64,000 nucleotides of DNA from Candidatus Woesebacteria bacterium (GCA_013426185.1 CP058602.1:271123-335122), one strand, 5' to 3'. Shown: positions 7,222-31,606, numbered from the stretch's first letter. Notes: generated by a model not told the origin, from the sequence alone. A program made the numbers and translations.

Positions 7222-8045
7222 AATCTCCTTTTCAGCTTTTTTGGAAAAGTTTCAAAAAATGCTCTAAGAACATAATACCCACTTCTTTTCTGCCATGGGT
7301 CAAAAACAAAATCCGGCCTTTTTTGATAAAAAACTTCAGGATATTTAAAACCACGAGGAAAAGGAATTCCAAGTTCATACTTATACTTAATATTTCTTTT
7401 AATAACCTCTTTATCCTTAAAAACGGTTGAGGATCTCACAAGATGAGTGAAGTGAAGATAATAATCATCAAGATGAAGCCTTTTCTTATTATCTCTTTTC
7501 TGGATCAAAACCCCATCCCCATCATAAATACCCTGTCTTCCATGAGGATTTGAAAAATGAAGTCCTGGAATTTTTCTATTGAAAAATCTTATGGTCAAAT
7601 GCCCTGTCACGCCATCAATACTATACCTTCCAGCTTCTTCTTCCTGATAATGATAAATATCTCCAACTAAGTTGTAATACCTATGAACCAATGACTCTAA
7701 ATCATCACCCCTTTTATTAATAACATCAATCGCTCTTTTTATACCATCCTCCCACCAAACTTCATCGCCATCTAAAATCATCACCCAATCACAATTTGAG
7801 GCATCTAGCATCTCCTGCCTTACTTCTGTAAATTTTTGAGAGTCTACCTCACCTACTTGGCGAAAGCTGATTTTATCCCGATACTTTTTTACTAACTCCT
7901 TTTCAATTTCTATGCTTCTGTCTGTACTTCCCGTATCCCAAAGAAGAATCCTGTCAACATAAGGCGCAACTGAATTAACAGCAAACCAAAGCCACCGCTC
8001 TTCATTTTTGACAAGAGTATGAACAAAAACAGATTTATGAATCAT
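7194..8045 (-). CDS. GT2-like glycosyltransferase (KNEE / DTGSTD variant)
   Basis: 'LVKNEE...LWDTGSTDRS...LDGDE' resembles the GT-A fold family. Confidence 0.45.
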   Translation of the reverse strand: MIHKSVFVHTLVKNEERWLWFAVNSVAPYVDRILLWDTGSTDRSIEIEKELVKKYRDKISFRQVGEVDSQKFTEVRQEMLDASNCDWVMILDGDEVWWEDGIKRAIDVINKRGDDLESLVHRYYNLVGDIYHYQEEEAGRYSIDGVTGHLTIRFFNRKIPGLHFSNPHGRQGIYDGDGVLIQKRDNKKRLHLDDYYLHFTHLVRSSTVFKDKEVIKRNIKYKYELGIPFPRGFKYPEVFYQKRPDFVFDPWQKRSGYYVLRAFFETFPKKLKRRFWKKGGVGY

Positions 8046-8048
8046 GAT

Positions 8049-8441
8049 TTAAGATTTATGATTTAAGAAAACCTTAGACTTCTTTATAATCCCCTGCAAC
8101 AATTTGTGACACACATCCGCTTGATTCTTAAGAGTAAGATATACATTCTCATCAATGTAACCCACATCTTTAGATATAATCAGCTGATTTTTTAATTCCA
8201 CTAAAGAACCCTGAGCTAAATAATAAAACTGAATTTTCTCCTTGTAAGTCTGCCTCCCAAAACCCTCAGCAATATTACTAGTAACCGAGATGGAAGATCT
8301 TCTTATTTGATCAATCAAAGAATATCTTTCAGATCTTGGAAATTTATCTGTAATCTTATAAAGCATGAGAACTAGCCTATGCCCTTCTTTCCACACATCA
8401 AGATCAGTGAAATCCCTGATTCTATTTATGTTTTTATTCAT
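8049..8441 (-). CDS. Four-helix-bundle protein (TIGR02436 / 23S rRNA intervening-sequence protein family)
   Basis: 130 aa. Diagnostic 'DLDVWKEGHRLVLMLYKIT..FP..ERYSLIDQIRRSSISVTSNIAEGFGR..YKEKIQFYYLAQGSLVEL' pattern. Confidence 0.8.
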   Translation of the reverse strand: MNKNINRIRDFTDLDVWKEGHRLVLMLYKITDKFPRSERYSLIDQIRRSSISVTSNIAEGFGRQTYKEKIQFYYLAQGSLVELKNQLIISKDVGYIDENVYLTLKNQADVCHKLLQGIIKKSKVFLNHKS

Positions 8442-8588
8442 AAATCATAAATCAAAATTCTATAATCCAGTTCTTGATCTTTAAGTTAATCTGTTAATTG
8501 TTATATTGTGATTTTTTTGTAATTTGTACTTTGGAATTTGTACTTTGGAATTTGCCTGCCCTGAACCGAATTTATTCTGGTTCAAGGT
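8442..8588. repeat. Mosaic intergenic repeat: TCATAAA heptamers, AATTTGT/ACTTTGG units and the hairpin core (copy a, inverted, 8549-8587)
   Basis: The reverse complement of 8549-8587 is 'ccttgaaccagaataaattcggttcagggcaggcaaatt'. Confidence 0.8.
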
Positions 8589-9869
8589 TTAGGATTTAGA
8601 ATTTATTGTGTAATACTTAATTACTATTCCCCATGTATAAACCAAAAGAATTGTGTTTGTGATTCCAAATGTAATCGTTGGACCAAAGGCACCAAATTTT
8701 GGAATTAAAAGATAATTTAAAACCAAAATTGCCGCCGTCTGAAAAACTGAAAAAACACCAATAATCTTAGGTTTTTTCATTGCATAAATGATGGCCGAGA
8801 CCGAAGGAGCAGTAAATAAAAAGGGAATCATAGAAAGAGCCAAAGCCTGAAAGACTTTAAACGATTCAAGATATTTAGTGCCAAAAAGAAAAAGAACAAA
8901 AGGCTTGGCAATTATCACCCAGAAAATTATCCCCAAACTGATACCAAGTAATGCCAAAACAGATTTTAGGATAAACCTCTTTTCCTTCTCCTTATCTCCC
9001 ATCGAAGCAAGGCGTGGAGAAATAACAGCTGCAAAACTTGATGTTAAAACAGCAATAAAAAAAGCAAGACGACTGGCAACTGAATAATAACCAGTTACAG
9101 TTGCGCCAGCTAAAGCCGCAAGCATCTGGATATCCGCCCTTCCTGAAATAGAAGATAAAATTCTGTTTACTCCAAGCCAGCCGGAAAATTTAACTAAATC
9201 AAGATAAATGTCTTTTTTCGGTTTTGCCCTTAAAAAATCAAAACCCAAAACAAAATAGGTAACAACTACTGTAACAAGGCCGGTCAAAGCAAAAGCAAAA
9301 AGGGATTTTGATAGAGTAAGCCCAGCAAGAGCAAAAAGCAAAACAAAAACCACACGGCCAAAAGAGTAAGAAACCTCAACGAGCATTGAGGAAGAAAATC
9401 TCTTGTAAGCCTGAAGAACAGAAGAAACAAAACTTGATAAAGAAAGACCAATAAGAATAACTATCGCCCAGTAAACCAAAGAGATATCATCACTTGCCAA
9501 AAGTCTATTTGAAATAACGCGACCAAAAGCAAAGAGGATAAACGAAATAAAAAGAAAAAATAAAACTCTAATCACCAAACCCGCTTTTATGTATTCCTTT
9601 GCTTTTTTATCTTCACCCTGCTTGATACTCGCTATAAAGTTAATAAGCGCCGAACTTACACCAAGATCAAGAATAGGAACTATCATCAAGGCAAGATTGT
9701 TGACAGCCGAAAATACTCCGAAGTCAGAAACTGAAAGAGCTCTTGCCACAAACCAAGTGAAGACAAATCCCAAAAAAGCCGTGGCCACATTGCTGAAAAA
9801 AAGAATGTAAGTATCCCGCGCAGTAGATGAGCGAGCCAGGCCAAAAGCTTTGTCAAAATATCTTCTCAC
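8589..9869 (-). CDS. Polysaccharide biosynthesis protein / oligosaccharide flippase (MOP superfamily, Wzx-like)
   Basis: 426 aa, ~12-14 TM helices, glycine-rich helices typical of Wzx/MATE-like exporters. The C-terminal codons run into the intergenic repeat. Confidence 0.55.
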   Translation of the reverse strand: MRRYFDKAFGLARSSTARDTYILFFSNVATAFLGFVFTWFVARALSVSDFGVFSAVNNLALMIVPILDLGVSSALINFIASIKQGEDKKAKEYIKAGLVIRVLFFLFISFILFAFGRVISNRLLASDDISLVYWAIVILIGLSLSSFVSSVLQAYKRFSSSMLVEVSYSFGRVVFVLLFALAGLTLSKSLFAFALTGLVTVVVTYFVLGFDFLRAKPKKDIYLDLVKFSGWLGVNRILSSISGRADIQMLAALAGATVTGYYSVASRLAFFIAVLTSSFAAVISPRLASMGDKEKEKRFILKSVLALLGISLGIIFWVIIAKPFVLFLFGTKYLESFKVFQALALSMIPFLFTAPSVSAIIYAMKKPKIIGVFSVFQTAAILVLNYLLIPKFGAFGPTITFGITNTILLVYTWGIVIKYYTINSKS

Positions 9870-9929
9870 TCCTCTATTTTAACATTGAAGCGACAAAAGA
9901 GAGAGTAGCAAGTAGGAAGTAGTAAGGAG

Positions 9930-10262
9930 ACTCAATTTCTAAGCACTAATATCTAAATTCTAAACAAATTACAAGTTCCAAATTCCAATATACAAACAAA
10001 TTACAATAAAAAGAGCATAAATCCTAAATTCTAAATCCTAAATTCTAAATCCTAAATTCTAAATCCTAAACCCTGAACCAGAATAAATTCGATTCAGGGC
10101 AGGCAAATTACAAGAACCAAATCATAAATCATAAATCCTAAATCCATATTCAAGAGTCAAAAATTAGATTATTGATTATAGATTGTAGATTATAGAATTT
10201 GGCTTTCTACTTTCTACGTTCTACTTTCTACTTAAATTTCTTTTAACTTTGCACTTTGAAGT
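9930..10262. repeat. Mosaic intergenic repeat: ACAAATT array, (C/T)CTAAAT x8 array, hairpin core (copy b, 10071-10109), TCATAAA, GATTATA/GATTGTA, TACTTTC and AACTTTG heptamer arrays
   Basis: Direct reading. The modules recur in the spacers at 8442, 25380, 26380, 27405 and 29905. Confidence 0.85.
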
Positions 10263-11817: not shown

Positions 11818-12245
11818 CATTTCTCAATAAGGTAGCCTAATGGTGGTTTAAAGCCAAAAGACTCATGGAGTCTTTTGCTATTATAGAATATCAGATATTC
11901 TGCTAGTTTTTCATAAAAGAGTTTGGGATGATAGATTAAATCTGAATTTGGTTCTAAGAATTCTTCCTTTAAAGTTCTTTGATATCTTTCAATTACTCCA
12001 TTAATTTTGGGACAAAGAGAGGATAAATAAAGTAATTGGTAATTTGTCTTTTTGAAAGATATTTTTCAAAGATTCCTTGGAATTCTAACCCATTATCAGT
12101 CTGGATGGATCTAATTTGTCCTGGGTAAACTAACTCCAAATTCTTGAAGAAGTCTAAGGTATTGAAACTATTAAGCTTAAAATAGGGTAAAGAAAAACCA
12201 AATTTGAGCTTGATATTACAAGCAGAGTAAAGATAAAGTTTTACT
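11818..12245 (-). pseudogene. Degraded DDE integrase (rve-domain, IS481/IS3-like) transposase remnant, C-terminal part only, frameshifted
   Basis: Minus-strand translation gives '...LVYPGQIRSIQTDNGLEFQG...' then, after a frameshift, 'NGVIERYQRTLKEEF...YNSKRLHESFGFKPPLGY'. This matches the rve core (DNGxEF ... NGxVER..RTLK). There is no intact ORF and the N-terminus is missing. Confidence 0.6.
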
Positions 12246-13617: not shown

Positions 13618-13800
13618 CAGATTACAAGCTCCAAATTACAAATCACAAATTACAATTTACAAACAACTAACAAATTACAATATACAAATTACAAATCACA
13701 ATATACAAGCACCAATAAACAAATTACAAGCTACAAATCACAAATCACAATATACAAATTCCAAATCACAAATTAACTCAAAACTTAAAAATCAAAGTCA
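13618..13800. repeat. 7-bp-periodic tandem array (ACAAATT/ACAAATC/ATATACA variants), ~25 units
   Basis: Direct reading: 'acaaatt acaaatc acaaatt acaattt acaaaca ...'. Related arrays occur in at least 8 other spacers. Confidence 0.85.
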
Positions 13801-13803
13801 AAA

Positions 13804-14148
13804 TTACTTAAATTTATTTATTATTGACGAAAGAATATTTCTGATTTCGATGCACTCTTTAATCAAATTTTCAAGTTCGAGCTTAAACTTTGGTTCGGCC
13901 TCGAGTAAAATATCCAACCAATAAGAAGTCTCTTTGGCTTCTTTTCTAGCAATTTTCAGCCTAAGGACAGAATCTTTTTTACTCAAGCTATCATTTGCTT
14001 CTCGATAATTGGCACCAACACTTGTGGCAGACCTTACAATTTGACTAATCAAAGGTATATTAATACTGTTTTTAGGAAGTTTCCTGCAAAGAGAAATCAC
14101 ATCTTTTGAGAAGGCTAAAGTTCTTTCCTCTAAGTCGTAAACCTTCAT
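13804..14148 (-). CDS. Four-helix-bundle protein (TIGR02436 family), second copy
   Basis: 'ERTLAFSKDVISLCRKLPKN...ISQIVRSATSVGANYREA...KIARKEAKETSYWLDIL' matches the family. Flanked on both sides by inverted heptamer arrays. Confidence 0.8.
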   Translation of the reverse strand: MKVYDLEERTLAFSKDVISLCRKLPKNSINIPLISQIVRSATSVGANYREANDSLSKKDSVLRLKIARKEAKETSYWLDILLEAEPKFKLELENLIKECIEIRNILSSIINKFK

Positions 14149-14159
14149 ATTATTTTGTT

Positions 14160-14290
14160 ATCAATTGTAATTTACTTCTTGGAATTTGTGATTTGTTTAT
14201 TGAGATTTGTTATTGTTTGTAATTTAGAATTTGGAGCTTGGGATTTGTTTGTAATTTGTGATTTGTAATTTGGAATTTTAACCAGAAGTA
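14160..14290. repeat. Heptamer tandem array in the opposite orientation (AATTTGT/GATTTGT/AATTTGG)
   Basis: Inverted relative to the 13618-13800 array. Overlaps the 3' end of CDS 14172..15911. Confidence 0.8.
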
Positions 14291-15911
14291 TTGCTTTTGC
14301 ATCCATTCTTTCATAATTCTTGGAGGGCTCAATCTGATACACACCCTTTAATTCATATTCTTCTGCAATTTTGTCGCATCCATCGCATTTCCATTTAGTC
14401 TTATCTTGCGGGTTTTCAAAAATCATTCTCCAATCCTCACCCATATAATAATTCGGGTCGTCAATTTTATAGCTTGTCAGATAAATCGCGTCAAAAGGTA
14501 TTGTTTGAGTTTTTTCGTCAATAAGTTGTTTTGGCTCAAGAGGAAACCAAACGGTTTTGCGTTCTCCATACCAAGTGCCCCAAGTATCAAGATTTGTAAC
14601 AATCACCTGGTTTGGCTCTGTATTCTCCTTTAAAATTTTTGAGAGTTCTACATAAACAGGTGGCTTGCCAACATTATGTGTCCTTGCCTCAAAGCGTGAG
14701 TCAAGAAGTAAAATTCCAAGAGTTTGACCAACAGCTAAGAAAAGCACCAATATACAAGATCCAATAAACAAAAAGCTTCGCTTTGTAACTTGCTTGGAAT
14801 TTGTTTGTGATTTGGAATTTGGAATTTGTAATTTGGAGCTTGGAATTTGTTTGTAATTTGTAATTTGGAATTTGTTAATTATTCCAACCAGTGTTCCTAC
14901 TCCAACTATATAAACCAAAGGCACAACGGGATGTATGTATCTAAAAAAAGGAATTCCAGCTGCTGTTACCAAAAGAGTTAAAACTACCATAAAAAAAGAC
15001 GCTACTTTAAAGCCAGTCTGAAGAGTAGTTTGCCCTTCTTTTGTCCTATCAAAAAGAGAAAATAATCCGATTACAAAAAGAGTAAAAAGATAAGGATTCA
15101 AAATTTGTGGCATCAACTTGTAAAAGTTGTAAAGGTTGTAGAAAACTTTCTTGAAAAGAGAAAGAAAATTAAAAGATTGTCGCGGCAAACCGCGCAAAGC
15201 GTCAGAAACTGCCATATTAGGGCTGTGCTGAAGAGAAACAAAATTGCCGATTGAAGTTACAGAATAAAGGAAGAACCTTCCTTGAAACTTTGGAATTAGA
15301 AAATAATCAACCAAAAGGCCAAATAAAACTAGACTTAAGAACCAAGACAAAGCCTTTTTTGGTTTAAAATTAATAAGTAACCAATAAAGAATAATTCCTG
15401 CGATATAAATAAAGGCTTGAGTGCGGGTAAAATACATTAAAATCAAAAAGAAAAACATCAAGAAATTAGCCCATTTTTTCTTCAAAGAAACAAAATATAA
15501 TGAGGCAACTATCTGAAAAATAAAAGTAGATTCTGAAGCCCCACTTGTTGCATAGTCAATTAGATTATAATTTGCGCCAACTGCCAAAGTAGAAAGGAAG
15601 CCTATTAGTTTTGAATTGAAGATCTTTTTTGCAAGAAGATAAACAAAGACTAAAGTTAAAAGAAAATAAAAAAAGGAATTGGCGATAACTGCAAAATCAG
15701 AAATTCCAAGGATTTTGAAAAAGAAAGCAATTGATAAAGAATGAAAAGGCAAAATGCCAGTGTTTTGGAAAAGAGGTTTTTCCAAAACTTCAAAAATCCT
15801 TTCTCCCCAAAAAGAAAAACTTGTCCCCCACCCCCTACCCAAAACAAAATTCCTAGCAACATCAGCATATTTTGCAGAATCAGAAAAAGTGAGATAAAAG
15901 TCCATATTCAT
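14172..15911 (-). CDS. GT-C-type polytopic membrane glycosyltransferase (ArnT/PMT-like). Carries a repeat-derived in-frame internal insertion and a repeat-derived C-terminal tail
   Basis: N-terminal region and TM architecture resemble the ArnT-like paralogs. Codons at ~14760-14885 and 14172-14290 are heptamer-repeat sequence translating to N/K/S/Q/T-rich peptide (NYKSQITN...). Confidence 0.5.
   Translation of the reverse strand: MNMDFYLTFSDSAKYADVARNFVLGRGWGTSFSFWGERIFEVLEKPLFQNTGILPFHSLSIAFFFKILGISDFAVIANSFFYFLLTLVFVYLLAKKIFNSKLIGFLSTLAVGANYNLIDYATSGASESTFIFQIVASLYFVSLKKKWANFLMFFFLILMYFTRTQAFIYIAGIILYWLLINFKPKKALSWFLSLVLFGLLVDYFLIPKFQGRFFLYSVTSIGNFVSLQHSPNMAVSDALRGLPRQSFNFLSLFKKVFYNLYNFYKLMPQILNPYLFTLFVIGLFSLFDRTKEGQTTLQTGFKVASFFMVVLTLLVTAAGIPFFRYIHPVVPLVYIVGVGTLVGIINKFQITNYKQIPSSKLQIPNSKSQTNSKQVTKRSFLFIGSCILVLFLAVGQTLGILLLDSRFEARTHNVGKPPVYVELSKILKENTEPNQVIVTNLDTWGTWYGERKTVWFPLEPKQLIDEKTQTIPFDAIYLTSYKIDDPNYYMGEDWRMIFENPQDKTKWKCDGCDKIAEEYELKGVYQIEPSKNYERMDAKAILLVKIPNYKSQITNKSQAPNSKLQTITNLNKQITNSKK
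14760..14885. repeat. Heptamer array embedded in-frame inside CDS 14172..15911
   Basis: 'ttggaatttgtttgtgatttggaatttggaatttgtaatttggagcttggaatttgtttgtaatttgtaatttggaattt'. Confidence 0.8.
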
Positions 15912-23215: not shown

Positions 23216-25270
23216 TCAGAAATCAAAAACTAAGCTACAAGTTTGTCTTATACGGGCCTTGGAAAAAACAACTAAAACGCAATTACCCTCCTTATAATAA
23301 ATTTCCTTAAAAGGTTCAAAACCATTTTCATAATCACCTTCCCTTGAGAGATTTATCAAACTCTCTGATAACTGCTTAGTTAGCCGATCCCTTTTCGATA
23401 AATCACCATCTTCATAATCTAAAACTATCTTATTCTTAACACCCTCAAATCTCAAAAAACGCTCAAGAGAAAATATTGGTTCGTAACTCCAAGGATTATC
23501 AGCTCTAAAAATAATAACCCTATTATCTTTATCTCTGACTTCTCGAGCAAGAGTAAGCACATTTTCTGTAAACAGATTTGTATACTTCACTGTATTCTCT
23601 TGTGCTCTTATCAGGGTATAATAACCTCTCAGCGGAACAAAGACAAGAAGTGTACTAAAAAAGAACCAATAAAAAAACAACACAATAAAATTCTTTAGTG
23701 TCTTATCAAAAATATAAGAACCTTTAACAGCTCTAGCAAATAAATATAAAGAAGATAACCAAAAAATATACTTTGATAAAATACCGGGGAAATCATATCT
23801 CCACCCACTAGGCCAGCTGCCTGAATAAAACACAAATTGAGAAAGATAAACCAAATAAGAAAAAAATATCAAAAATAATGAAAACTTATTTAAAATTGCG
23901 AACTGTATACGCTTCTTACTCCTTAAAAATGTAAAAGAAATCAAGAGAATTGGAAAAAAAATCAAATTCAGGCCAGTAAATGAGTTTCTTAAACCCAAAA
24001 CTAAATTCTTCAAAAGAACTGATTCATTAACATCATTAGCATAGAAGTTTTGACCAACTTTACTTACAGCCACAAAAACACCTAAAAATACAAAAAAAGA
24101 GAACAAAATATGCAAAGATAAATAAAATAAACCCTTCTTATTATCCTTGATAATTAGAGGATGAGCTAAAATCAAATAAATAGCAGGTAACGCCAAAACA
24201 ACCATATTTTCTTTTGATCCTATAGCCAAAATACCCCCCAACAGGAACAAAAGCCAAAAGAAAAGAGATTTGGGTTTACCATTAAGGATTTTGTATAAAG
24301 AAAGAGAATACAGAGAAAGACCTAGTACCACATAAATTTCACCAGGTCCAAGACGAGCCCAAATATCGTACCAGTATTTGTCGGTCATAATAAACAGGGT
24401 AAAGATGATTCCAGATAACAAACCAAAATACCGAGAAACCAAAAAAGTTACTGAAAAGACAAAAATAGAAAGAATGACAAAACGAGCAAAATACCAAAGA
24501 AAAGGGTTGTCACGCCACAAAGCGCTTTCAACTATCCGCACTAAATAATAAGATGGCCTAAACCTGAGAGCTTTTCCATAATTGCCGACTTCTGTTTTTA
24601 AAAGAAGTTTAGGTATTTCACCAAACAAGATTTTCTTATCAGATCCTAAAAAATAAGCTGTTTCATGATCATCTATCATTGACCATTTAGCCTTAAAATT
24701 TTCTTTAAATATAAGAAAACTAAAAACTAAAGAAAAAATAAGAATCAAAACCAAGGATAACTTAGTTTTTGGAGGATTGAACAACTTTTCTAAAGAAAAA
24801 AAGAACTTAGATTTAGCAAACTTTTCAATTAATGCATAAACTAAACTAAAATTATTTCTAAAATCTTTTTTTGAATCAAGAATTGTTCTCAAAAAAATAA
24901 CGGCAAAAAAAACTAGCAGATAATTTAATGGGGCTAAAGAAATGTGATACCTAGAAAAAACGAAATTAGGAAAATTCAATCTTTCTTCTATATTTAAGAA
25001 AATTGCAACAAACAAAATAAAAGGGGTTATGTAGAACACTGCTCTTTTTAATAAATAAGGGTAACGAACCTTATAGAAAATAATCAAGGCAACAGAAATA
25101 AGAAGAAAAACTTGAATAGGAACTTTTATATGATTAAAAACAACACCGGGATAAACAAAAACTTCAGCCAATAACAAAAAAAGAACAAAAGATAGAAAAA
25201 AAAGAAAAATTATAAATGATACTGTTTTTTTGGTCTTAGTCATAATATTGAAATTAAATGATAAACTCAA
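23216..25270 (-). CDS. Large polytopic membrane protein (684 aa), GT-C candidate
   Basis: At least 14 TM helices plus a C-terminal soluble domain. Confidence 0.45.
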   Translation of the reverse strand: MSLSFNFNIMTKTKKTVSFIIFLFFLSFVLFLLLAEVFVYPGVVFNHIKVPIQVFLLISVALIIFYKVRYPYLLKRAVFYITPFILFVAIFLNIEERLNFPNFVFSRYHISLAPLNYLLVFFAVIFLRTILDSKKDFRNNFSLVYALIEKFAKSKFFFSLEKLFNPPKTKLSLVLILIFSLVFSFLIFKENFKAKWSMIDDHETAYFLGSDKKILFGEIPKLLLKTEVGNYGKALRFRPSYYLVRIVESALWRDNPFLWYFARFVILSIFVFSVTFLVSRYFGLLSGIIFTLFIMTDKYWYDIWARLGPGEIYVVLGLSLYSLSLYKILNGKPKSLFFWLLFLLGGILAIGSKENMVVLALPAIYLILAHPLIIKDNKKGLFYLSLHILFSFFVFLGVFVAVSKVGQNFYANDVNESVLLKNLVLGLRNSFTGLNLIFFPILLISFTFLRSKKRIQFAILNKFSLFLIFFSYLVYLSQFVFYSGSWPSGWRYDFPGILSKYIFWLSSLYLFARAVKGSYIFDKTLKNFIVLFFYWFFFSTLLVFVPLRGYYTLIRAQENTVKYTNLFTENVLTLAREVRDKDNRVIIFRADNPWSYEPIFSLERFLRFEGVKNKIVLDYEDGDLSKRDRLTKQLSESLINLSREGDYENGFEPFKEIYYKEGNCVLVVFSKARIRQTCSLVFDF

Positions 25271-25379
25271 CTATCAGACGCAGACAAAGCATATTAGTAT
25301 AAACTCCCCCTATTTTAGCATCTTTAAAAATTTTTTGAGTATAAAACAGAAGTTAACTTAAAACTTATGATCAGATTAT

Positions 25380-25530
25380 AGAAACAAATTACAATATACA
25401 AGCTCCAAATTACAAACTAACTTAAAACTTAAAAATCAAAAGTCAAAAATATAACTCAAAAATTAAAACTCAAAAGTTAAAACATTGATTATAGAATTTT
25501 GATTTATGATTTATGAATTAAGAAGCAATC
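25380..25530. repeat. Mosaic intergenic repeat (ACAAATT heptamers, AAAACTT/AAAAGTC heptamers, TTGATTTATGA units)
   Basis: Shares modules with the spacers at 8442-8588, 9930-10260 and 27405-27780. Confidence 0.7.
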
Positions 25531-25666
25531 AACTCCGATATCCGAAGGCTGATAGCTGAAATCCGAATTCTTTCAACTTTGAACTATTGAATATTGATTT
25601 AAGAATTAGGAATCTCATTCATCTTTATTCTAAAACTACCAAAATTCTTCCTAGATGCACAACGAA

Positions 25667-25695
25667 TTGCCTTAAGACCAGATTTGTTGTAATAT
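25667..25695 (+). promoter_or_regulatory. Sigma70-like promoter TTGCCT-N17-TAATAT for the small acidic protein gene
   Basis: Followed by a leader containing 'GTTGGCT' and the SD 'AGGAGG' 6 nt before the ATG. Confidence 0.45.
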
Positions 25696-25749
25696 ACCAT
25701 TAGTAGGGTAAAAGTTGGCTCTTTCAAATTCTCAAAACAGGAGGCAAAG

Positions 25750-25950
25750 ATGTCTGGCCCTGGAGATAAAAGTGGAGTATCTGATATACAAGATAAGTTT
25801 GGAGTTGACGGTTACACTGTCTCTTCGAACGATTATGGTGGGCAACATCATACCGTCTTTGATTCTGACGGTGGTTCATACCGATTTTCTTGGGATACCG
25901 ACAGTAAAGGTGAATACGTCGATGGTAGCGCTCACATAAGTGAGCAATAA
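25750..25950 (+). CDS. Small acidic S/T/D/G/Y-rich protein (66 aa) with N-terminal MSGPGDK, paralog of 11512..11703
   Basis: Strong SD, promoter and a terminator hairpin immediately 3'. Preferred over the overlapping antisense ORF 25724..25987. Confidence 0.5.
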   Translation: MSGPGDKSGVSDIQDKFGVDGYTVSSNDYGGQHHTVFDSDGGSYRFSWDTDSKGEYVDGSAHISEQ

Positions 25951-25958
25951 TCTTTTTT

Positions 25959-26006
25959 GCTACAGGTCCTACCTCTATAGTAGCCAACTGCCTGTAGCAT
26001 TTTTTA
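25959..26006 (+). terminator. Rho-independent terminator candidate (GCTACAGG ... CCTGTAGC + ATTTTTTAT)
   Basis: 8-bp perfect inverted repeat followed by a T-run, directly after the stop codon at 25948-25950. Confidence 0.5.
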
Positions 26007-26007
26007 T

Positions 26008-26376
26008 ATGAGATACTTTACGGGAAAGAACAAAATTGAATTGCCTTTATCCAAATCAAAATGGAAGGAAATCCTTAAAGTCGTTAGGGCGGATGAAAGA
26101 AACCTAAGCGAAGAAGATGCCAAAAATATCTTCTGCCTATCTTTTGAGTTTTTCCTAAAAGGCAAACTTTCAATAGATGATATATCTTCAATCAATGGTA
26201 GGCTTTTGGAAGCCATAAGCGGTAGAACCAATAAATACCCAGAACTAATTGACGGACTAGAAGCAGGATCAGAACTAGGCTTTTACATTAGAGACATAAA
26301 CTTGATACTAAACTTTAAAAACTTTCTTGAAGAAGTCTTCTCTGTTTATAATTCACTCCGCTCTCAGACAAAATAA
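26008..26376 (+). CDS. Hypothetical soluble protein (122 aa)
   Basis: ORF only. No recognisable motif. Confidence 0.35.
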   Translation: MRYFTGKNKIELPLSKSKWKEILKVVRADERNLSEEDAKNIFCLSFEFFLKGKLSIDDISSINGRLLEAISGRTNKYPELIDGLEAGSELGFYIRDINLILNFKNFLEEVFSVYNSLRSQTK

Positions 26377-26379
26377 CAA

Positions 26380-26640
26380 TTAACAGTTAACAAATTAACA
26401 AATTAACTCAAAACTTGAGATTAGAATAAAGAACATAGAACAAAGGGAAAAATTACCCGCCTGCAAAAGCTATCGCTTTAGCGATTGCGGGCAGGCAAAT
26501 TCCAAATTCCAAATTACAAACAAAAAATTTCAACTTTTAACTTTGCACTTTGAACTTTTAACTATTTATTTTTATTAATTTGGCTTTCTACTTACTACGT
26601 TCTACTTTCTACTTAAATTTATTTTAACTTTGAACTTTTA
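26380..26640. repeat. Mosaic intergenic repeat (AACTTTT/AACTTTG heptamers, TACTTTC heptamers, a short palindrome GCAAAAGCTATCGCTTTAGCGATTGCGGGCAGGC)
   Basis: The 'ggctttctacttactacgttctactttctactt' and 'aacttttaactttgcactttgaacttttaac' modules recur at 10199-10262 and 30113-30185. Confidence 0.75.
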
Positions 26641-27404
26641 ACTATCATTCTTCTTCCCCAATTATTGAGCTTGTGAAGGAATAAGATCAAGGGGTTTTTG
26701 GTGTATTTTTGGACAATATCCTCGTCTTTTGTAAGTAATTTTTCAAATGATGTTGAAGAAGCATTTTCTCCGCTCATTCTGAATGATGAAAGATTTTTAT
26801 TAATTAAAAGAGGCATTCTCTCTTTTGAAATCTTAAGCCAAAGGTCGTATTCCATAACAAAGTGATCAGTGCCAATAAATGGGCCGAATTTTTGCCACGC
26901 CTTGCGGGTTATAAATACGGAAGGTTGAATAAGATAATTTACAATTAAAAGTATTGTTCTTAAGTTTAAAAATAAAAGTAAATTTTTATAGAAAGTAACA
27001 AGTTTTGCCACTTCTTTCCCCGCGCTATTTACCACTTTTCCTTTCCCTGCCACCCAAAGACAATCGGGATTTTTTTGATAAGTTTTTGCAACTTCAAAAA
27101 AAGCGTCTTTTTCATAAAAATCATCAGCATTAATAAAAGCTAAGATTTCACCTGTTGCTTTATCAAAGCCCTTATTAATTGCATCCCATTGGCCTTTATC
27201 TTTTTTGGATTCAAATTTAATAATTTTTGGATATTTTTGAGCGTATTTTCTAATAATTTCCAAAGTTCCGTCGGTTGACGCCCCATCCTGAATAATCACT
27301 TCTAAATTTGGGTAATTTTGGGAAATAATAGAGTCAATCGTCTTTTTAATAAATTGTTTTTTATTAAAAGAGGGAATGACTACTGAAATTTTGGGTAAGT
27401 CCAT
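26619..27404 (-). CDS. GT2 glycosyltransferase
   Basis: 'ISVVIPSFNKKQFIKKTIDSIISQ...EVIIQDGASTDGT' and a 'NADD' DxD-like motif. Confidence 0.7.
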   Translation of the reverse strand: MDLPKISVVIPSFNKKQFIKKTIDSIISQNYPNLEVIIQDGASTDGTLEIIRKYAQKYPKIIKFESKKDKGQWDAINKGFDKATGEILAFINADDFYEKDAFFEVAKTYQKNPDCLWVAGKGKVVNSAGKEVAKLVTFYKNLLLFLNLRTILLIVNYLIQPSVFITRKAWQKFGPFIGTDHFVMEYDLWLKISKERMPLLINKNLSSFRMSGENASSTSFEKLLTKDEDIVQKYTKNPLILFLHKLNNWGRRMIVKSSKLK

Positions 27405-27514
27405 AGGATTATTATAACAGGGTGAAAGGTAAAAGGTGAAAGTTAAAAGAAATTTGGACTTCAGACTTCGGACATCGGCTGCCGGATATCAGCTGCCAGA
27501 AGTTAGTCAAAGTT

Positions 27515-27702
27515 GGTGAAGCTGGCCAAAAGATAGTATTTAGTATCTTGTATTATGTATTATGCATAAAAATGCATCGTCCCCATAATACATAATTCAT
27601 AATACTAAGTTCAGATTTTTTCCCTTTGTTCTTTGTTCTAATCTAGTAAGTAAAAGGCAAGAGGTAAAAGGTAAAAGAGATGCAAGTAGAAAGTAGAAAG
27701 CC
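27515..27702. repeat. Inverted-repeat element copy A (~185 bp) with a central 13-bp-stem hairpin (ATTATGTATTATG / CATAATACATAAT)
   Basis: Near-perfect reverse complement of 30161-30345, except the asymmetric hairpin loop, which keeps the same orientation. Confidence 0.8.
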
Positions 27703-27707
27703 AAATT

Positions 27708-28844
27708 CTATAATCTACAATCTATAATCAATAATCTAATTTTTGACTTTTGACTTTTAAGTTTTGAGTTAATAAAAGATCCCAACGAAAGATAAATAAA
27801 AGGAAGAATTATAAGAAAATAACGGCTGAAAGGAGCATTAAAGATATTTATCAAAAAATAAAAAATAGGAAAAATAAAAATAAAATCCTTCTTTTCCAGC
27901 CTTTTGATATTTTTAATCTGCAAAATCCCAAAAACAAAACCCAAAGGCCAGAAGAAATTCCAAACATCAGCTTTTAAGATTCTTCCCTTCTCCCACCAAC
28001 TCACAAAATGACCACTGAAAAACAAAAGTAGATTATTGCCAAAAATAGAAGTGGTATTGTGAGAAAGCATAAACTTAAGCATTTTTAATTCAAAAAGAAA
28101 AATGTTAAAAAGGCCGCCATAATTTATGAAAGTCTTGATATAAGTAAGACTGAAAGTAAAAAAGGCTACCAAAAAACTCAAAAACATATTTTTATAATCA
28201 ACCTTTTCTTTAATCAAAAATTTTCTGTAAAGAAAAATAAAAACCACAAGAAGCAAGCTTGAGCTCCAAAACTTGGAGGCAAAAAGAAGACCCAAGACAA
28301 AACCGTTCAAAAGAAAATTATTGGGAAAATATAAAGCCAAAATTATGTAAAATAAAGAAAACACAGCTTGTGCCGGATCCAAAAGCAATTGTGTAATATT
28401 ATCCTTTAGAAGTGGGTCAAAAACAAGAAAAAGCGAGGCCAAAAAAGCAACTTCTCTCTTCTTAAAAGCCATCTTTCCCAAAAGATAAGTCAAGAATATT
28501 AAAAATAAAGCAAAGAAAATTTGCACCCAATAGGGATTTACAAAAAAGAGGGTAGCAAAACCAAAAAGATACTTTACAAGAGGAGGATGCTGAAAATTAA
28601 ATTTTGTCGGGTCCTCACCCTTGGCATAAAGATAACCTGTGGCAAGGTAAATTTCAGAATCAGATAAAAATATTCTATCTTTTATTTTGTCTTCTTTATC
28701 TTCTATATCTTGGCTGCGAAAATAATTATCGATTAGACCTTCATCAAAACGATATTTGAAAATATCAGGATTTTTAAAATAGGAAAAAACCAAAAAGAGA
28801 ATAAAAAGCAAAAACAAAAGCCAAAAATCAACTTTTTTAAGCAT
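27708..28844 (-). CDS. Polytopic membrane protein
   Basis: 378 aa, multi-TM. Lies between the inverted repeat copies together with gmd. Confidence 0.45.
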   Translation of the reverse strand: MLKKVDFWLLFLLFILFLVFSYFKNPDIFKYRFDEGLIDNYFRSQDIEDKEDKIKDRIFLSDSEIYLATGYLYAKGEDPTKFNFQHPPLVKYLFGFATLFFVNPYWVQIFFALFLIFLTYLLGKMAFKKREVAFLASLFLVFDPLLKDNITQLLLDPAQAVFSLFYIILALYFPNNFLLNGFVLGLLFASKFWSSSLLLVVFIFLYRKFLIKEKVDYKNMFLSFLVAFFTFSLTYIKTFINYGGLFNIFLFELKMLKFMLSHNTTSIFGNNLLLFFSGHFVSWWEKGRILKADVWNFFWPLGFVFGILQIKNIKRLEKKDFIFIFPIFYFLINIFNAPFSRYFLIILPFIYLSLGSFINSKLKSQKSKIRLLIIDCRL

Positions 28845-28853
28845 TAATAGAGG

Positions 28854-29864
28854 CTACTTCAAACGAGCCAGATTAGCATCAACAAGCATCTGAACAAGCT
28901 CTTTAAAAGAGGTTTTGGGCTTCCAGCCAAGAACTTTCTTTGCTTTTGATGGATCAGCCACAAGAGGCCCAGTTTCAGTAGGTCTTATGAAACGAGGATC
29001 AACATAAATATACTTTTTATAGTCAAGGCCAACATAAGAAAAGGCCTCTTCACAAAGCTCTTTGATAGAGTGAGTTTCACCTGTACCTACAACAAAATCA
29101 TCAGGTTCTTTGTGCTGAAGCATTAGCCACATGCTTTCTACATAATCACCAGCAAAACCCCAATCTCGTCTTGCTTCGAGATTGCCAAGTGCCACTTTTC
29201 CATCTTTAACAATGGGTTCTCCCTCTTCATTCAAATGCTGACTAGTTCTAATACCAAGCTTTGCACAGGCAGCAGCATAAGTAACTTTTTGGGTTACAAA
29301 ACCAAGACCACGGCGAGGCGACTCGTGATTAAATAAAATACCACAGGAAATAAACATTTTATAACTCTTTCGATAAATTCTGGCAATATTATGAGCATAA
29401 AGCTTTGCGGCAGCATAAGGATTTGCGGGATTAAAGGGCGTTTCTTCATTTTGTGGAATCTCCTTCACCCATCCGAACATCTCGCTAGATGACGCTTGAT
29501 AAAACCTCGCATTAGGAACTACGTCTAAAGCAGCATCCATTACTCTATGAGCACCAATACCAGTTATTTCAGCTGTGTGAATAGGCTGTCTGAAGGATTC
29601 GGCGGGATGAGATTGAGAAGCTAAATTATAAATTTCATCGGGCTTAACTTTTTGTATAGCCTCTCTTATTGCCACAGGGTCAAGTAAATCTGCCTGAATA
29701 AGATTAAGCCTCTCTTGAATGTGAGCAATATTGGCATAATAAAAGTGGCTAGTTTTTCTTACAATACCCGAGACCTCGTAACCCTTTTTAAGAAGAAATT
29801 CAGCCAAGTAAGAACCGTCTTGACCAGTGATACCCGTAATAAGTGCCTTTTTCTTCTTTGACAT
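28854..29864 (-). CDS. gmd: GDP-mannose 4,6-dehydratase
   Basis: 'ALITGITGQDGSYLAEFLLKKGYEVSGIVR' N-terminus, a YxxxK active site, and the conserved 'RRGxxFVTxK' region. Full length of 336 aa. Confidence 0.9.
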   Translation of the reverse strand: MSKKKKALITGITGQDGSYLAEFLLKKGYEVSGIVRKTSHFYYANIAHIQERLNLIQADLLDPVAIREAIQKVKPDEIYNLASQSHPAESFRQPIHTAEITGIGAHRVMDAALDVVPNARFYQASSSEMFGWVKEIPQNEETPFNPANPYAAAKLYAHNIARIYRKSYKMFISCGILFNHESPRRGLGFVTQKVTYAAACAKLGIRTSQHLNEEGEPIVKDGKVALGNLEARRDWGFAGDYVESMWLMLQHKEPDDFVVGTGETHSIKELCEEAFSYVGLDYKKYIYVDPRFIRPTETGPLVADPSKAKKVLGWKPKTSFKELVQMLVDANLARLK

Positions 29865-29904
29865 AAAAGTATCAGTATTATAAACCCATTAATGATAGAT
29901 AAGC

Positions 29905-30160
29905 AAGAGACAAACAATGCATAAAACAAATTCCAAGTTCCAATATACAAATTACAAACAAATCACAATATACAAATTCCAAATTACAAATCACAAACTA
30001 CAAGAAACAAATTCTAAATTCTAATATCTAAATTCTAAATCCTAAACCCTGAACCAGAATAAATTCGATTCAGGGCAGGCAAATTCCAAATCACAAATTA
30101 CAAACAAAAAAATTCCAACTTTTAACTTTTAACTTTGAACTTTTAACTATTTATTAATTT
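29905..30160. repeat. Mosaic intergenic repeat: ACAAATT and CTAAATC heptamer arrays, a hairpin core (copy c, 30047-30085), AACTTTT heptamers
   Basis: The core 'ccctgaaccagaataaattcgattcagggcaggcaaatt' also occurs at 10071-10109 and, inverted, at 8549-8587. Confidence 0.8.
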
Positions 30161-30400
30161 GGCTTTCTACTTTCTACTTGCATCTCTTTTACCTTTTACC
30201 TCTTGCCTTTTACTTACTAGATTAGAACAAAGAACAAAGGGAAAAAATCTGAACTTAGTATTATGAATTATGTATTATGCAGAAAAATGCATTGTTCCCA
30301 TAATACATAATACAAGATACTAGATACAATCTTCCGGCCAGCTTTTGACCAACTCCACTGCAAGCGGGGACTAGCTTCGACCAGCTTCGACCAGCTTCGA
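30161..30400. repeat. Inverted-repeat element copy B (inverse of 27515-27702) followed by a 3x 10-mer 'CAGCTTCGAC' tandem
   Basis: The reverse complement aligns with copy A over ~185 bp. The hairpin stem is at 30267-30279 / 30299-30311. Confidence 0.8.
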
Positions 30401-30406
30401 CCAGTT

Positions 30407-31606
30407 TCACGCTACCCAATAGCCCCTGATGAAATAGGTAAGAAGAATAAATTGAAGAATAATCAGAAATGGTATTACCAACTTTACAAGACGTGGATAT
30501 TTTTCTGCCAAAAAAGGAAAAATCAAAAAGGCGGTTAAAGTATAACGAGGCATTGAGGTTAGAGTTCCTGTTAGGGTAGGTATAATTAAAACCAAAAAAG
30601 TAAAAATAAAATAAGAAAACCTCATTTTTCTGATAAAAAGAAAAAGCAAAGAAAAAAACAAAAGGGCAAGTAACAACTCAAATAAAGCAATGTTAAATTG
30701 ATAAGAAAAGATCGGAGTGTGAATAAAAATTTTGAAGTATCTATAAACTACTTGAGGCAAAAGAATAATTGGTTTGTCGCTTCTTTCTGCTGCAAAAAGA
30801 GGTTGTGCCTCAACAAAATAAAAAGGCTTACCAAAAAATTTCCAAAGATAAAACATATAAAAAACAAGACCTAAAGGAGAAATCAAAACTCCCAAAAAAT
30901 CTTTTAGAAATTGCTTTGACAGTTTTATTTTGCCTTTATAATTTAGATAAAACTCAATAAGAATAAGCAGAAAAAGACAAACTCCAACTACCTTTGTGAG
31001 AGAAGCAAAAGCGGCAAAAATACCTGCAAACAAAAATTTTTTCTTGAAAGAAAAATAAACAGAAAGAGAAGCTAAAAACAAAAACAAAGATTCGGTATAA
31101 ATAGCTCCAAAATAAAAACCAGTCGGCCAGGACAAAAGCAAGATAAGAGAAAGAAGAGCAGTTTTTGAATTAAAAATATTTTTGACTAGAAGATAAAAGG
31201 CATAAAAAGCCAACAAAGCAAAAACGTTTGAGACCAAAAGGGCAACGGCAAAAAAAGAGGGATCAACATAAACACTGGTATCAAGAGCCATATCTTTGGG
31301 CAAGAAATTCAAAATTCTAACGAGGAAAGGATAGAGAGGAAAAAATGCCTGAGAAGGTATAAAATCATAGCCGTTTTGAGCTATCCTTAAATAATGCACT
31401 CCATCAAAACCTCCCCATCCCCAAAGCCAAGGTGGAAGTTTGGTTATCTCCAAAACCCTTTCAACATAAGGAAACCAATGGCCATAATTGGGTACTAAAA
31501 AAACAGAAAGATAAGAAACAACAAAAAGTAAAATTCTCCATAATAAAAAGACAAAGAAAACAAGAAGAAAATCATTTCGCAACAATTTAGAAAAGAATTT
31601 TTTCAT
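30407..31606 (-). CDS. GT-C mannosyltransferase-like membrane protein (PIG-V / GT76-like, bacterial DUF-type)
   Basis: 'PWLWGWGGFDGVHYLRIAQNGYDF...AFFPLYP' resembles the PIG-V family W-DG-HY..IA..GY motif. Multi-TM. Confidence 0.45.
   Translation of the reverse strand: MKKFFSKLLRNDFLLVFFVFLLWRILLFVVSYLSVFLVPNYGHWFPYVERVLEITKLPPWLWGWGGFDGVHYLRIAQNGYDFIPSQAFFPLYPFLVRILNFLPKDMALDTSVYVDPSFFAVALLVSNVFALLAFYAFYLLVKNIFNSKTALLSLILLLSWPTGFYFGAIYTESLFLFLASLSVYFSFKKKFLFAGIFAAFASLTKVVGVCLFLLILIEFYLNYKGKIKLSKQFLKDFLGVLISPLGLVFYMFYLWKFFGKPFYFVEAQPLFAAERSDKPIILLPQVVYRYFKIFIHTPIFSYQFNIALFELLLALLFFSLLFLFIRKMRFSYFIFTFLVLIIPTLTGTLTSMPRYTLTAFLIFPFLAEKYPRLVKLVIPFLIILQFILLTYFIRGYWVA

Follow-up and report, generated by a model that had tools for sequence, protein, structure and literature searches.

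Inverted repeats around gmd in a Candidatus Woesebacteria genome are probably two members of a dispersed intergenic hairpin repeat family

To understand what appears to be a cassette bracketed by long inverted repeats, we analysed a 64,000-nt stretch of the closed, ~819-kb genome of a Candidatus Woesebacteria bacterium. This full stretch is called the window here, and all positions without a contig label refer to it. The repeats lie on either side of a 2.46-kb segment that carries gmd, which encodes GDP-mannose 4,6-dehydratase, and a membrane-protein gene. A previous reading made from the sequence alone (the sequence-only reading) took this arrangement to be an invertible or exchangeable cassette of the phase-variation kind. 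Our results make it probable that the arms are neighbouring copies, placed in opposite orientation, of an intergenic repeat of ~130-200 nt that is dispersed in a hot-spring lineage of Woesebacteria (Patescibacteria), and that there is no programmed invertible cassette. Each family member is a chain of degenerate heptamers around a hairpin with a perfect stem of 13 bp (up to 25 bp when imperfect) and a 19-nt loop.

The inverted repeat and its family

Self-BLAST placed the match between 27511-27707 and 30354-30156 (92% over 200 nt, E = 4e-75) first among the repeats of the window, and weaker similarity continues outside these limits. A repeat finder run on the window divided the arms into an inner part of 124 nt with 100% complementarity (27584-27707 and 30156-30279) and an outer part of 46 nt with 91% complementarity (27519-27564 and 30299-30344). 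Both programs thus agree with the sequence-only reading that near-perfect inverted repeats of ~185 bp surround the gmd pair; it had the place right, and its arm ends (27515-27702 and 30161-30345) fell slightly short of the real extent. Each arm contains a hairpin with the stem ATTATGTATTATG / CATAATACATAAT, at 27552-27564 / 27584-27596 on the left and 30267-30279 / 30299-30311 on the right. The 13-nt stem sequence has six matches with at most one mismatch, all of them within the two arms, as compared with 0.17 expected from shuffled sequences. On the left, the stem can be extended to 25 bp with 3 mismatches (27540-27608), and this hairpin is present in the predicted RNA fold of the minus strand. 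The features are as follows, with X and Y denoting the two flanks of the hairpin and the classes being those of the loops described below.

27511-27707, no strand: left arm of the inverted repeat (self-BLAST and repeat finder)
30156-30354, no strand: right arm of the inverted repeat (self-BLAST and repeat finder)
27552-27596: left hairpin, 13-bp perfect stem, 19-nt loop CATAAAAATGCATCGTCCC at 27565-27583
30267-30311: right hairpin, 13-bp stem (30267-30279 / 30299-30311), loop CAGAAAAATGCATTGTTCC at 30280-30298
27584-27707: inner tract, 124 nt, complement of 30156-30279, beginning exactly at the right stem arm
27470-27659, plus strand: left repeat copy, class 2, in the order X flank, hairpin, Y flank (nhmmer E = 6e-46, profile positions 2-194)
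30203-30378, minus strand: right repeat copy, X flank and loop of class 1 (nhmmer E = 5e-45)

We scanned metagenome contigs of the Joint Genome Institute (JGI) for the exact stem. This identified 83 stretches with 93 hairpins, nearly all of which have a 19-nt loop and the same flanks: X ends in ...GGCCGGAAGATTGTATCTAGTATCTTGT and Y starts with TCATAATACTAARTTCAGAATTTTTCCCTTTGTTCT.... Several hairpins per contig are usual and the maximum is six, on a single 66-kb contig. The scan yielded ~62 distinct copies of a ~190-nt element in related contigs, and the repeat is thus not confined to the two arms. Aligned, 61 distinct copies have a conserved core of ~130-190 nt that decays gradually into heptamer blocks, with no shared termini, terminal inverted repeats or target duplications. 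A profile built from these 61 copies matches the window at the two arms only.

Copies of the family occur in intergenic DNA in all gene contexts (tail-to-tail, head-to-head and co-directional) and in either orientation. Neighbouring copies within 3.5 kb form 24 direct pairs versus 6 inverted ones, and we rejected a general preference for inverted pairs around genes on this basis. Within the left arm and next to it, the sub-modules 27624-27662, 27663-27698 and 27705-27773 recur in many combinations and orientations. No Rfam family matched at E <= 1 in 25200-30700. Viral contigs of IMG/VR contained no exact match to the stem, and a viral origin is thus without support and was rejected. Together, these data indicate a new, apparently undescribed repeat that belongs to the interspersed intergenic palindromic or mosaic repeats. 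It stands out by its heptamer register, its two loop forms and a very fast turnover of the spacers.

Like REP/BIME, ERIC, Correia, BOX and RUP repeats, the family is multi-copy, strictly intergenic and imperfectly palindromic, and it occurs in either orientation in all gene contexts. It further resembles REP/BIME in being a mosaic of shorter modules that recombine and in having copies at strain-specific rearrangement boundaries. It differs from REP/BIME in its degenerate heptamers in one register, AT-rich composition, 19-nt loop and two subfamilies of loop polarity, and in having no link to a cognate transposase.

Orientation of the gmd segment and its gene cluster

The bracketed segment contains the following features.

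27708-28844, minus strand: membrane protein, 378 aa, with homologues in Patescibacteria
28854-29864, minus strand: gmd, GDP-mannose 4,6-dehydratase (PF16363, E = 1e-115; TIGR01472, E = 3e-111; same name in QLG69536.1)
29865-30155: spacer upstream of gmd, made of heptamer arrays (TRF, self-BLAST and sequence)

If this segment were a programmed cassette, a site-specific recombinase acting on the repeats or on the stem would flip it and thereby phase-vary a GDP-sugar modification. In favour of this, the two glycan genes and the spacer upstream of them lie between long near-perfect inverted repeats, phase variation classically affects glycan loci, and gene content beside gmd varies by strain (L222, L218 and L221). 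To set against this we have ten junction-spanning contigs from at least 9 assemblies, and the orientation is that of the window in every contig across the left junction (L001, L002, L005, L217 and L221) and across the right junction (L004, L007, L143, L211 and L218). We also queried public assemblies with the exact protein sequences of gmd, the 399-aa gene, GT2 and close variants, and found no inverted segment. The orientation is also conserved in a relative that has no repeat. In the complete genome AP024680 (L219), a GT4 gene, the gene of a 395-aa mannosyltransferase, gmd and the membrane-protein gene lie on one strand with ordinary spacer. The membrane protein of AP024680 has 59% amino-acid identity to that of the window. 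A syntenic comparison over this distance, another check suggested for the cassette, finds order and orientation kept without the repeat.

Among the open reading frames (ORFs) from 12.3 to 37.2 kb, Pfam identified glycan-synthesis, methyltransferase and unknown proteins only and no tyrosine or serine recombinase, which agrees with the earlier statement that none is encoded nearby. A degraded integrase reported at 11818-12245 was not confirmed. The only ORF there with a TDNGxEF-like motif (TDNGLEF, which is reminiscent of a DDE integrase core) encodes 48 aa at 11993-12139, within 870 nt that are otherwise free of genes. Pfam gave no match for it at E <= 0.1, and it has no similarity to the rve transposase that adjoins hairpins in L218.

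Strain differences in gene content do not coincide with the repeat-bounded segment either: gmd stays and its neighbours change. In L222 (8738-11326), a 494-aa PMT_2 gene and an inverted, 84%-identical GT2 gene replace the 378-aa membrane-protein gene and the GT2 gene, and in L221 (1915-2477) the place of GT2, immediately past the left element, is taken by an AbiEii toxin gene. The elements thus mark rearrangement boundaries, as dispersed repeats usually do. The right arm is, moreover, absent from some 99%-identical strains, and the arms come from a family of ~62 copies whose neighbours mostly do not bracket DNA in inverted fashion. The locus is similar to invertible switches (fimS, hin, the Bacteroides capsule promoters and shufflons) in that inverted repeats enclose part of a surface-glycan locus. 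It is unlike them in lacking a recombinase within 12-37 kb and a second orientation, in having arms that belong to a dispersed family and are much longer than typical recombinase sites, and in enclosing complete genes where those switches carry a promoter or alternative gene ends. With one orientation in at least 9 assemblies and the same order in the repeat-free relative, a programmed cassette has in our judgement almost no chance of being correct.

The gmd and membrane-protein pair would, by our preferred reading of two dispersed-repeat copies, be a fixed part of a co-directional glycan-biosynthesis cluster and not a switch. Rare inversion of the RecA type between the perfect arms is conceivable because conversion between inverted copies implies recombination intermediates; such an event would be a by-product and not programmed. 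The locus is probably not a phase-variable glycan switch and should not be cited as programmed surface variation in bacteria of the candidate phyla radiation.

The pair might alternatively be the cargo of a mobile element, with hairpins that are non-autonomous elements similar to REPINs or to miniature inverted-repeat transposable elements (MITEs) and with the two arms as ends of a composite that carries gmd and the membrane-protein gene. The element is indeed multi-copy, intergenic and hairpin-centred and has no preferred gene context; Y1 (RAYT-like) transposases are encoded in related contigs, and an insertion sequence (IS) of the rve family lies inside the X flank of some copies. Speaking against mobility, the alignment of 61 copies fades on both sides, without the sharp common termini of MITEs, terminal inverted repeats or target duplications. 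No Y1 transposase is encoded in the window. The gene pair occupies the same position in the relative without repeats and thus was not inserted as a unit. We consider the mobile-element explanation quite unlikely.

The REPIN-RAYT system is similar to the family in having hairpin repeats at tens of copies per genome, and related contigs encode RAYT-like proteins with a Y1 domain (PF01797). We examined it as a candidate because Y1 genes occur near the homologous AP024680 locus and in six hairpin-bearing contigs. It was rejected, since the six Y1 homologues are flanked by GC-rich palindromes of their own that end in CTAC/GTAG (CTACCCCTTTAAAGGCC / GGCCTTTAAAGGGGTAG, and also AGGAGGTGCGAACCT...AGGTTCGCACCTCCT) and are unrelated to the ATTATG hairpin. 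Such palindromes are seen on both sides of the Y1 genes in L157 (5197-5988), L188 (9899-10437), L205 (6627-7466) and L149 (10039-10878), which suggests separate REP-like systems in these small genomes.

The rve-family (DDE) IS was observed in L218 (2146-3119), where it is inside the X flank of the left element, and also in L146, L150, L153 and L180. Its ends are ~25 nt long (TTGTTTGACTACGATACGTTGTCAG / ...GGTACAACGTATCGTAATATAACAA). At least two distinct copies (L218/L146 and L150/L153) carry the insertion 9-16 nt away from the stem, within the GTAT-type heptamer array of their X flank, and the IS may have a target preference for the repeat. IS1397 and ISKpn1 target the palindromic repeats BIME or ERIC. 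The rve-family IS is similar to these in lying at the stem of at least two copies and unlike them in being beside the stem and not in the loop, with too few cases for a statement on specificity.

All genes from 19.8 to 38.7 kb are co-directional, and the gmd pair lies within this long cluster together with GT2, GT4, GT-C/PMT-like and SDR genes. JGI names the Patescibacteria homologues of the 378-aa protein as predicted membrane-bound dolichyl-phosphate-mannose-protein mannosyltransferase, and the window's own protein has no match in Pfam or NCBIfam; the product of 27708-28844 appears to be a membrane protein akin to glycosyltransferases of the GT-C type. The final ~15-20 codons in its ORF (27708-27773) consist of heptamer modules that recur at 10150-10217, and the length of the protein varies by strain (370, 378 or 399 aa), with a variable tail. 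Since the lengths differ and the tail is encoded by heptamer modules, turnover of the repeat would seem to rewrite the C-terminal tail between strains.

In the spacer of gmd, a hairpin module with a 7-bp stem near 30049-30077 recurs at 8553-8590 and 10066-10100. Just beyond the right arm, the decamer GACCAGCTTC is present in four tandem copies (30369-30408) that overlap the stop codon of the 399-aa gene. In many members of the family the outer X flank is made of related 'GGTCGAAGCTGG' units.

Two loop classes and exchange between copies

The sequence-only reading described a 13-bp perfect stem with a loop of ~19 nt that has one polarity on the plus strand in both arms, and this is what we observed. 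The two loops match at 16 of 19 positions when compared directly, versus 6 of 19 when one is reverse-complemented, and the mismatches of the extended 25-bp stems show that the stem arms are swapped between the copies and move with the flanks. The flanks and stem arms are thus inverted and the loop is not.

To place these loops within the family, we oriented all copies from X to Y before sorting them by loop. Class 1, X-[GGAACAATGCATTTTTCTG]-Y, has 33 copies, 22 of which share an identical loop. Class 2, X-[CAtgAaAATGCATTATCCC]-Y, has 29 copies with more diverse loops (e.g. CATGAAAATGCATTATCCC). The class-2 loop is the reverse complement of the class-1 loop with 3-4 linked substitutions. In the left arm of the window both the loop and the X flank are of the class-2 type. 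The right loop is the class-1 consensus loop on the opposite strand, and flank diagnostics assign the right X flank to class 1 as well. The right Y flank carries the class-2-associated base; it is of class-2 type and identical to the Y flank of the left copy. Across the family, flank and loop class are associated (Fisher p = 0.0014). The right arm may accordingly be a chimera (class-1 X flank and loop, class-2 Y flank), and this is suggestive only because the association is partial.

The loops of the window share their polarity on the plus strand because the two copies differ in class and lie in opposite orientation. Since the classes are about equally common, the same outcome is to be expected for ~50% of inverted neighbour pairs. 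Mixed-class inverted pairs like that of the window occur in L186 and L218, and an inverted pair of two class-1 copies in L197 (168 nt, 96%) has its loop inverted along with the arms. Many pairs of family copies are direct.

These data bear on the possibility that one copy recently inverted its loop in place after a simple inverted duplication. Loop inversion between stem arms is a documented class of mutation in chloroplast spacers (PMC5492656), and a few family members resemble clean flips or hybrids (L178, L159 and L206). By contrast, the window loops differ by 3 substitutions that are class-diagnostic or close to such sites, each of them matches many copies of its own class elsewhere, and the class difference extends to the X flanks of the arms. 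With loops and X flanks both class-specific, the two copies are of different descent on the X-and-loop side, and a recent local flip is very unlikely. The previous claim that the loop had flipped relative to its arms in one copy is right in that the polarities are opposite; what it took for a local event reflects two old subfamilies among ~62 copies. Inversion across the stem must presumably once, long ago, have created the second loop polarity.

We also determined whether loop polarity follows transcription or replication. Where the genes on both sides of a copy point the same way, the sense strand carries the G-form loop in 15 cases and the C-form in 12, as judged by crude gene calls, and relative to the G-rich strand, our stand-in for replication direction, the ratio is 19:19. 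These unbiased ratios argue against a loop that is read in a fixed direction. Promoter and terminator scans found nothing in or at the hairpins. Two roles for the loop were rejected: a -10 box (GATAAT or TATAAT), on account of the unbiased polarity and the empty promoter scan, and a mini-ORF (ATG CAT TTT TAT GCA TAA), on account of the unbiased polarity and the absence of the ATG at that site in L001. Terminator function was rejected too, since the intrinsic terminator scan identified no site at either hairpin of the window, where the stems are A/T-rich and have no immediate T run.

Loop state changes between closely related strains at the same locus. We defined pairs of orthologous elements by far flanks, 120-900 nt away, that match at 96-99%. 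The loop class is the same in 82 such pairs and different in 6. The pairs L151/L175, L195/L197 and L209/L212 combine far flanks of 96-99% identity with loops of opposite class. L209/L212 also agree almost completely in their near flanks, and the difference is essentially the loop alone; in L195/L197 and L151/L175 the loop change comes with differences in neighbouring modules. Because the two states are not exact reverse complements, most of these changes are not simple flips. Small inversions in hairpins of chloroplast spacers, with loops of 2-31 bp and stems of 8-18 bp (PMC5492656), are comparable in that a loop (19 nt here) within a perfect stem (13 bp here) has either polarity at orthologous sites of close relatives. 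Unlike those, the polarities here come with the 3-4 linked substitutions, which are common to dozens of paralogous copies, and for this reason most changes look like exchange of two alleles and not like repeated flips. Loops are probably exchanged by gene conversion through the identical stems: loop states would now move among loci in short patches whose end points fall in stems common to all copies. This appears to be a clean case, apparently undescribed for Patescibacteria, of dispersed hairpin repeats with two loop-polarity alleles that are exchanged among copies, and such repeats sit in spacers that are rebuilt between near-identical strains.

One contig that is 99.96% identical to the window (L132, Logan SRR6186653) ends at a position corresponding to ~30299-30320. 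Past the X flank and stem of the right arm, GGAACAATG is replaced by CAGGTGAAT, with which a class-2 loop in X-to-Y polarity begins; the contig also has one additional mismatch 14 nt before the stem. Either this locus has a minority variant of the loop state or the contig is joined to another copy here.

The arms of the window differ from each other in an uneven manner. There are no mismatches in the 124 nt of the inner tract versus 7 in the 65 nt of the loop and outer arm (~89%), with the step precisely at the stem. If divergence is ~10%, a run of 124 positions free of mismatches has a probability of ~2e-6. This improbability and the position of the step argue that the inner half was homogenised recently, and the tract is best read as a recent local gene conversion. 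The identity step and the strain comparison below would fit a strain-specific homogenisation of the two neighbouring copies by gene conversion or by template switching that ended at the stem.

Strains with flanking genes 98-99% identical to those of the window (L001, which is GCA_020725745.1, L131, L133 and L222) have no right-arm hairpin or Y flank. At the site of the right arm they contain a remnant of the X half alone and different heptamer blocks, and their spacer upstream of gmd cannot be aligned with that of the window (30104-30400 versus L001 9499-9761, L131, L133 and L222). Spacer turnover thus appears to be far faster than coding divergence. In L004, L006 and L007 the right arm extends inward by 66 nt that copy 27708-27773 next to the left arm. 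At the left arm, 27641-27736 is missing in L002 and L221. We read these strain differences as probable results of repeated sequence exchange between the two nearby copies. Both hairpins are also present in the 93%-identical L218, again with class 2 on the left and class 1 on the right. Practical consequences are that the repeats break metagenome assemblies of such genomes, delimit strain-specific changes of gene content in the glycan cluster and could serve as fine-scale strain markers.

Several points weigh against our interpretation. Assemblies of metagenomes follow the majority path and would miss an inverted form carried by a minority. Many contigs end at the hairpin, which is expected for a multi-copy repeat but hides linkage. 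Gene conversion is read from sequence patterns. The link between flank and loop is partial: the class-2 base is present in 6 of 28 class-1 copies, and 3 of these 6 represent this locus. Finally, the spacers of L218 share more extensive inverted similarity with partly different modules (163 nt at 83%, 70 nt at 93% and 59 nt at 95%). Repeated conversion can explain the similarity in L218, and selection for complementarity is a possible but weaker alternative.

Such selection could act on RNA. With read-through from the 399-aa gene, the arms would pair as a double-stranded stem of ~190 bp that is cut by RNase III or insulates the mRNA, similar to the stems that flank rRNA. A transcript shared by the two arms is possible because the genes between 19.8 and 38.7 kb all run in one direction. 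Besides the inverted similarity that the two spacers retain in L218, complementarity is longer in L004, L006 and L007. Against a role in RNA, strains with the same genes have little or none of this complementarity (61 nt at 70% in the L001 type and none in L222) and nearby family copies are mostly direct. A TATAAT close to gmd lies inside the bracketed segment, and the main transcript may therefore exclude the right arm. An RNA-level role is in our view highly improbable, and we favour exchange between two copies of a dispersed repeat.

Heptamer-built spacers

The repeat copies lie in spacers that are themselves built of heptamers. TRF identified dozens of short arrays of period 7. Their units are diverse, and nearly all of the arrays lie between genes. 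In spacers, the frequency of base matches is 0.386, 0.360 and 0.341 at lags of 7, 14 and 21 versus a baseline of ~0.28, and coding DNA is at ~0.30 without a peak. Both arms, including the stem (ATTATGT ATTATG), are heptamer chains in a single register. Other examples are 8031-8554, 9904-10233, 13621-13796, 14186-14880, 25384-25597, 26368-26643, 27421-27767 and 29926-30329. Adjacent units are often 1-2 bases apart, as if they had arisen by stepwise duplication with change. Modules recur in other spacers of the window in both orientations: 10150-10217 matches 27753-27686 at 98.5%, and 26482-26598 matches 30066-30177 directly.

Heptanucleotide repeats (cyanobacterial short tandemly repeated repetitive sequences and heptamer simple sequence repeats) are similar in being intergenic with period 7, mixed unit types and a patchy taxonomy that includes Cyanobacteria and Bacteroidota. 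Beggiatoaceae have TAACTGA heptamer repeats, and heptamer spacers in bacteria are known but unexplained (PMC4679880). The family described here is unlike these in that the chains form a conserved, dispersed element of ~190 nt with a central hairpin and not just local arrays. The literature that we searched contains no link between heptamer repeats and Patescibacteria.

A scan of genome contigs with a stem pattern that has W at two positions gave matches dominated by (ATTATGA)n hairpins of other phyla. Among the matches listed (L011-L130), at least 120 places have hairpins whose loops are unrelated and whose stems are tandem heptamers, (ATTATGA)n ... (TCATAAT)n. They are from Bacteroidota, Cyanobacteria (Scytonema, Stigonema, Tolypothrix and Fischerella), Chloroflexota, Myxococcota, Planctomycetota and another metagenome-assembled genome of Patescibacteria. 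We roughly estimate that chance would produce a 26-nt pattern far less often.

These spacers and the hairpin elements within them could be the product of an uncharacterised, still active process that writes and reshuffles heptamer-phased intergenic DNA, with the stem as an exchange point that swaps loop states, modules copied between spacers and full turnover between 99%-identical strains. Such a process could also underlie the heptamer hairpins of Cyanobacteria, Bacteroidota, Chloroflexota and other phyla. We regard this as unlikely. The ~0.8-Mb genome of this lineage is a compact system for studying the heptamer-written spacers of several phyla.

Two smaller inverted arrangements were also observed in the window. 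A second inverted pair (8545-8605 and 10113-10053, 61 nt, 95%) lies around a flippase-like gene at 8589-9869. It contains a hairpin with a 7-bp stem (CCCTGAA...TTCAGGG) whose loop is inverted together with the arms, and a third copy is at 30029-30104. Inverted heptamer arrays of the ATTACAA and TTTGTAA types (13618-13776 and 14150-14278) surround a 114-aa PF05635 gene at 13804-14148. PF05635 is the Avd-like 23S rRNA intervening-sequence protein, and the window has a second such gene at 8049-8441. A link between the hairpin family and these two genes was rejected, since 569 kb of hairpin-bearing loci contain 6 PF05635 genes, mostly far from hairpins.

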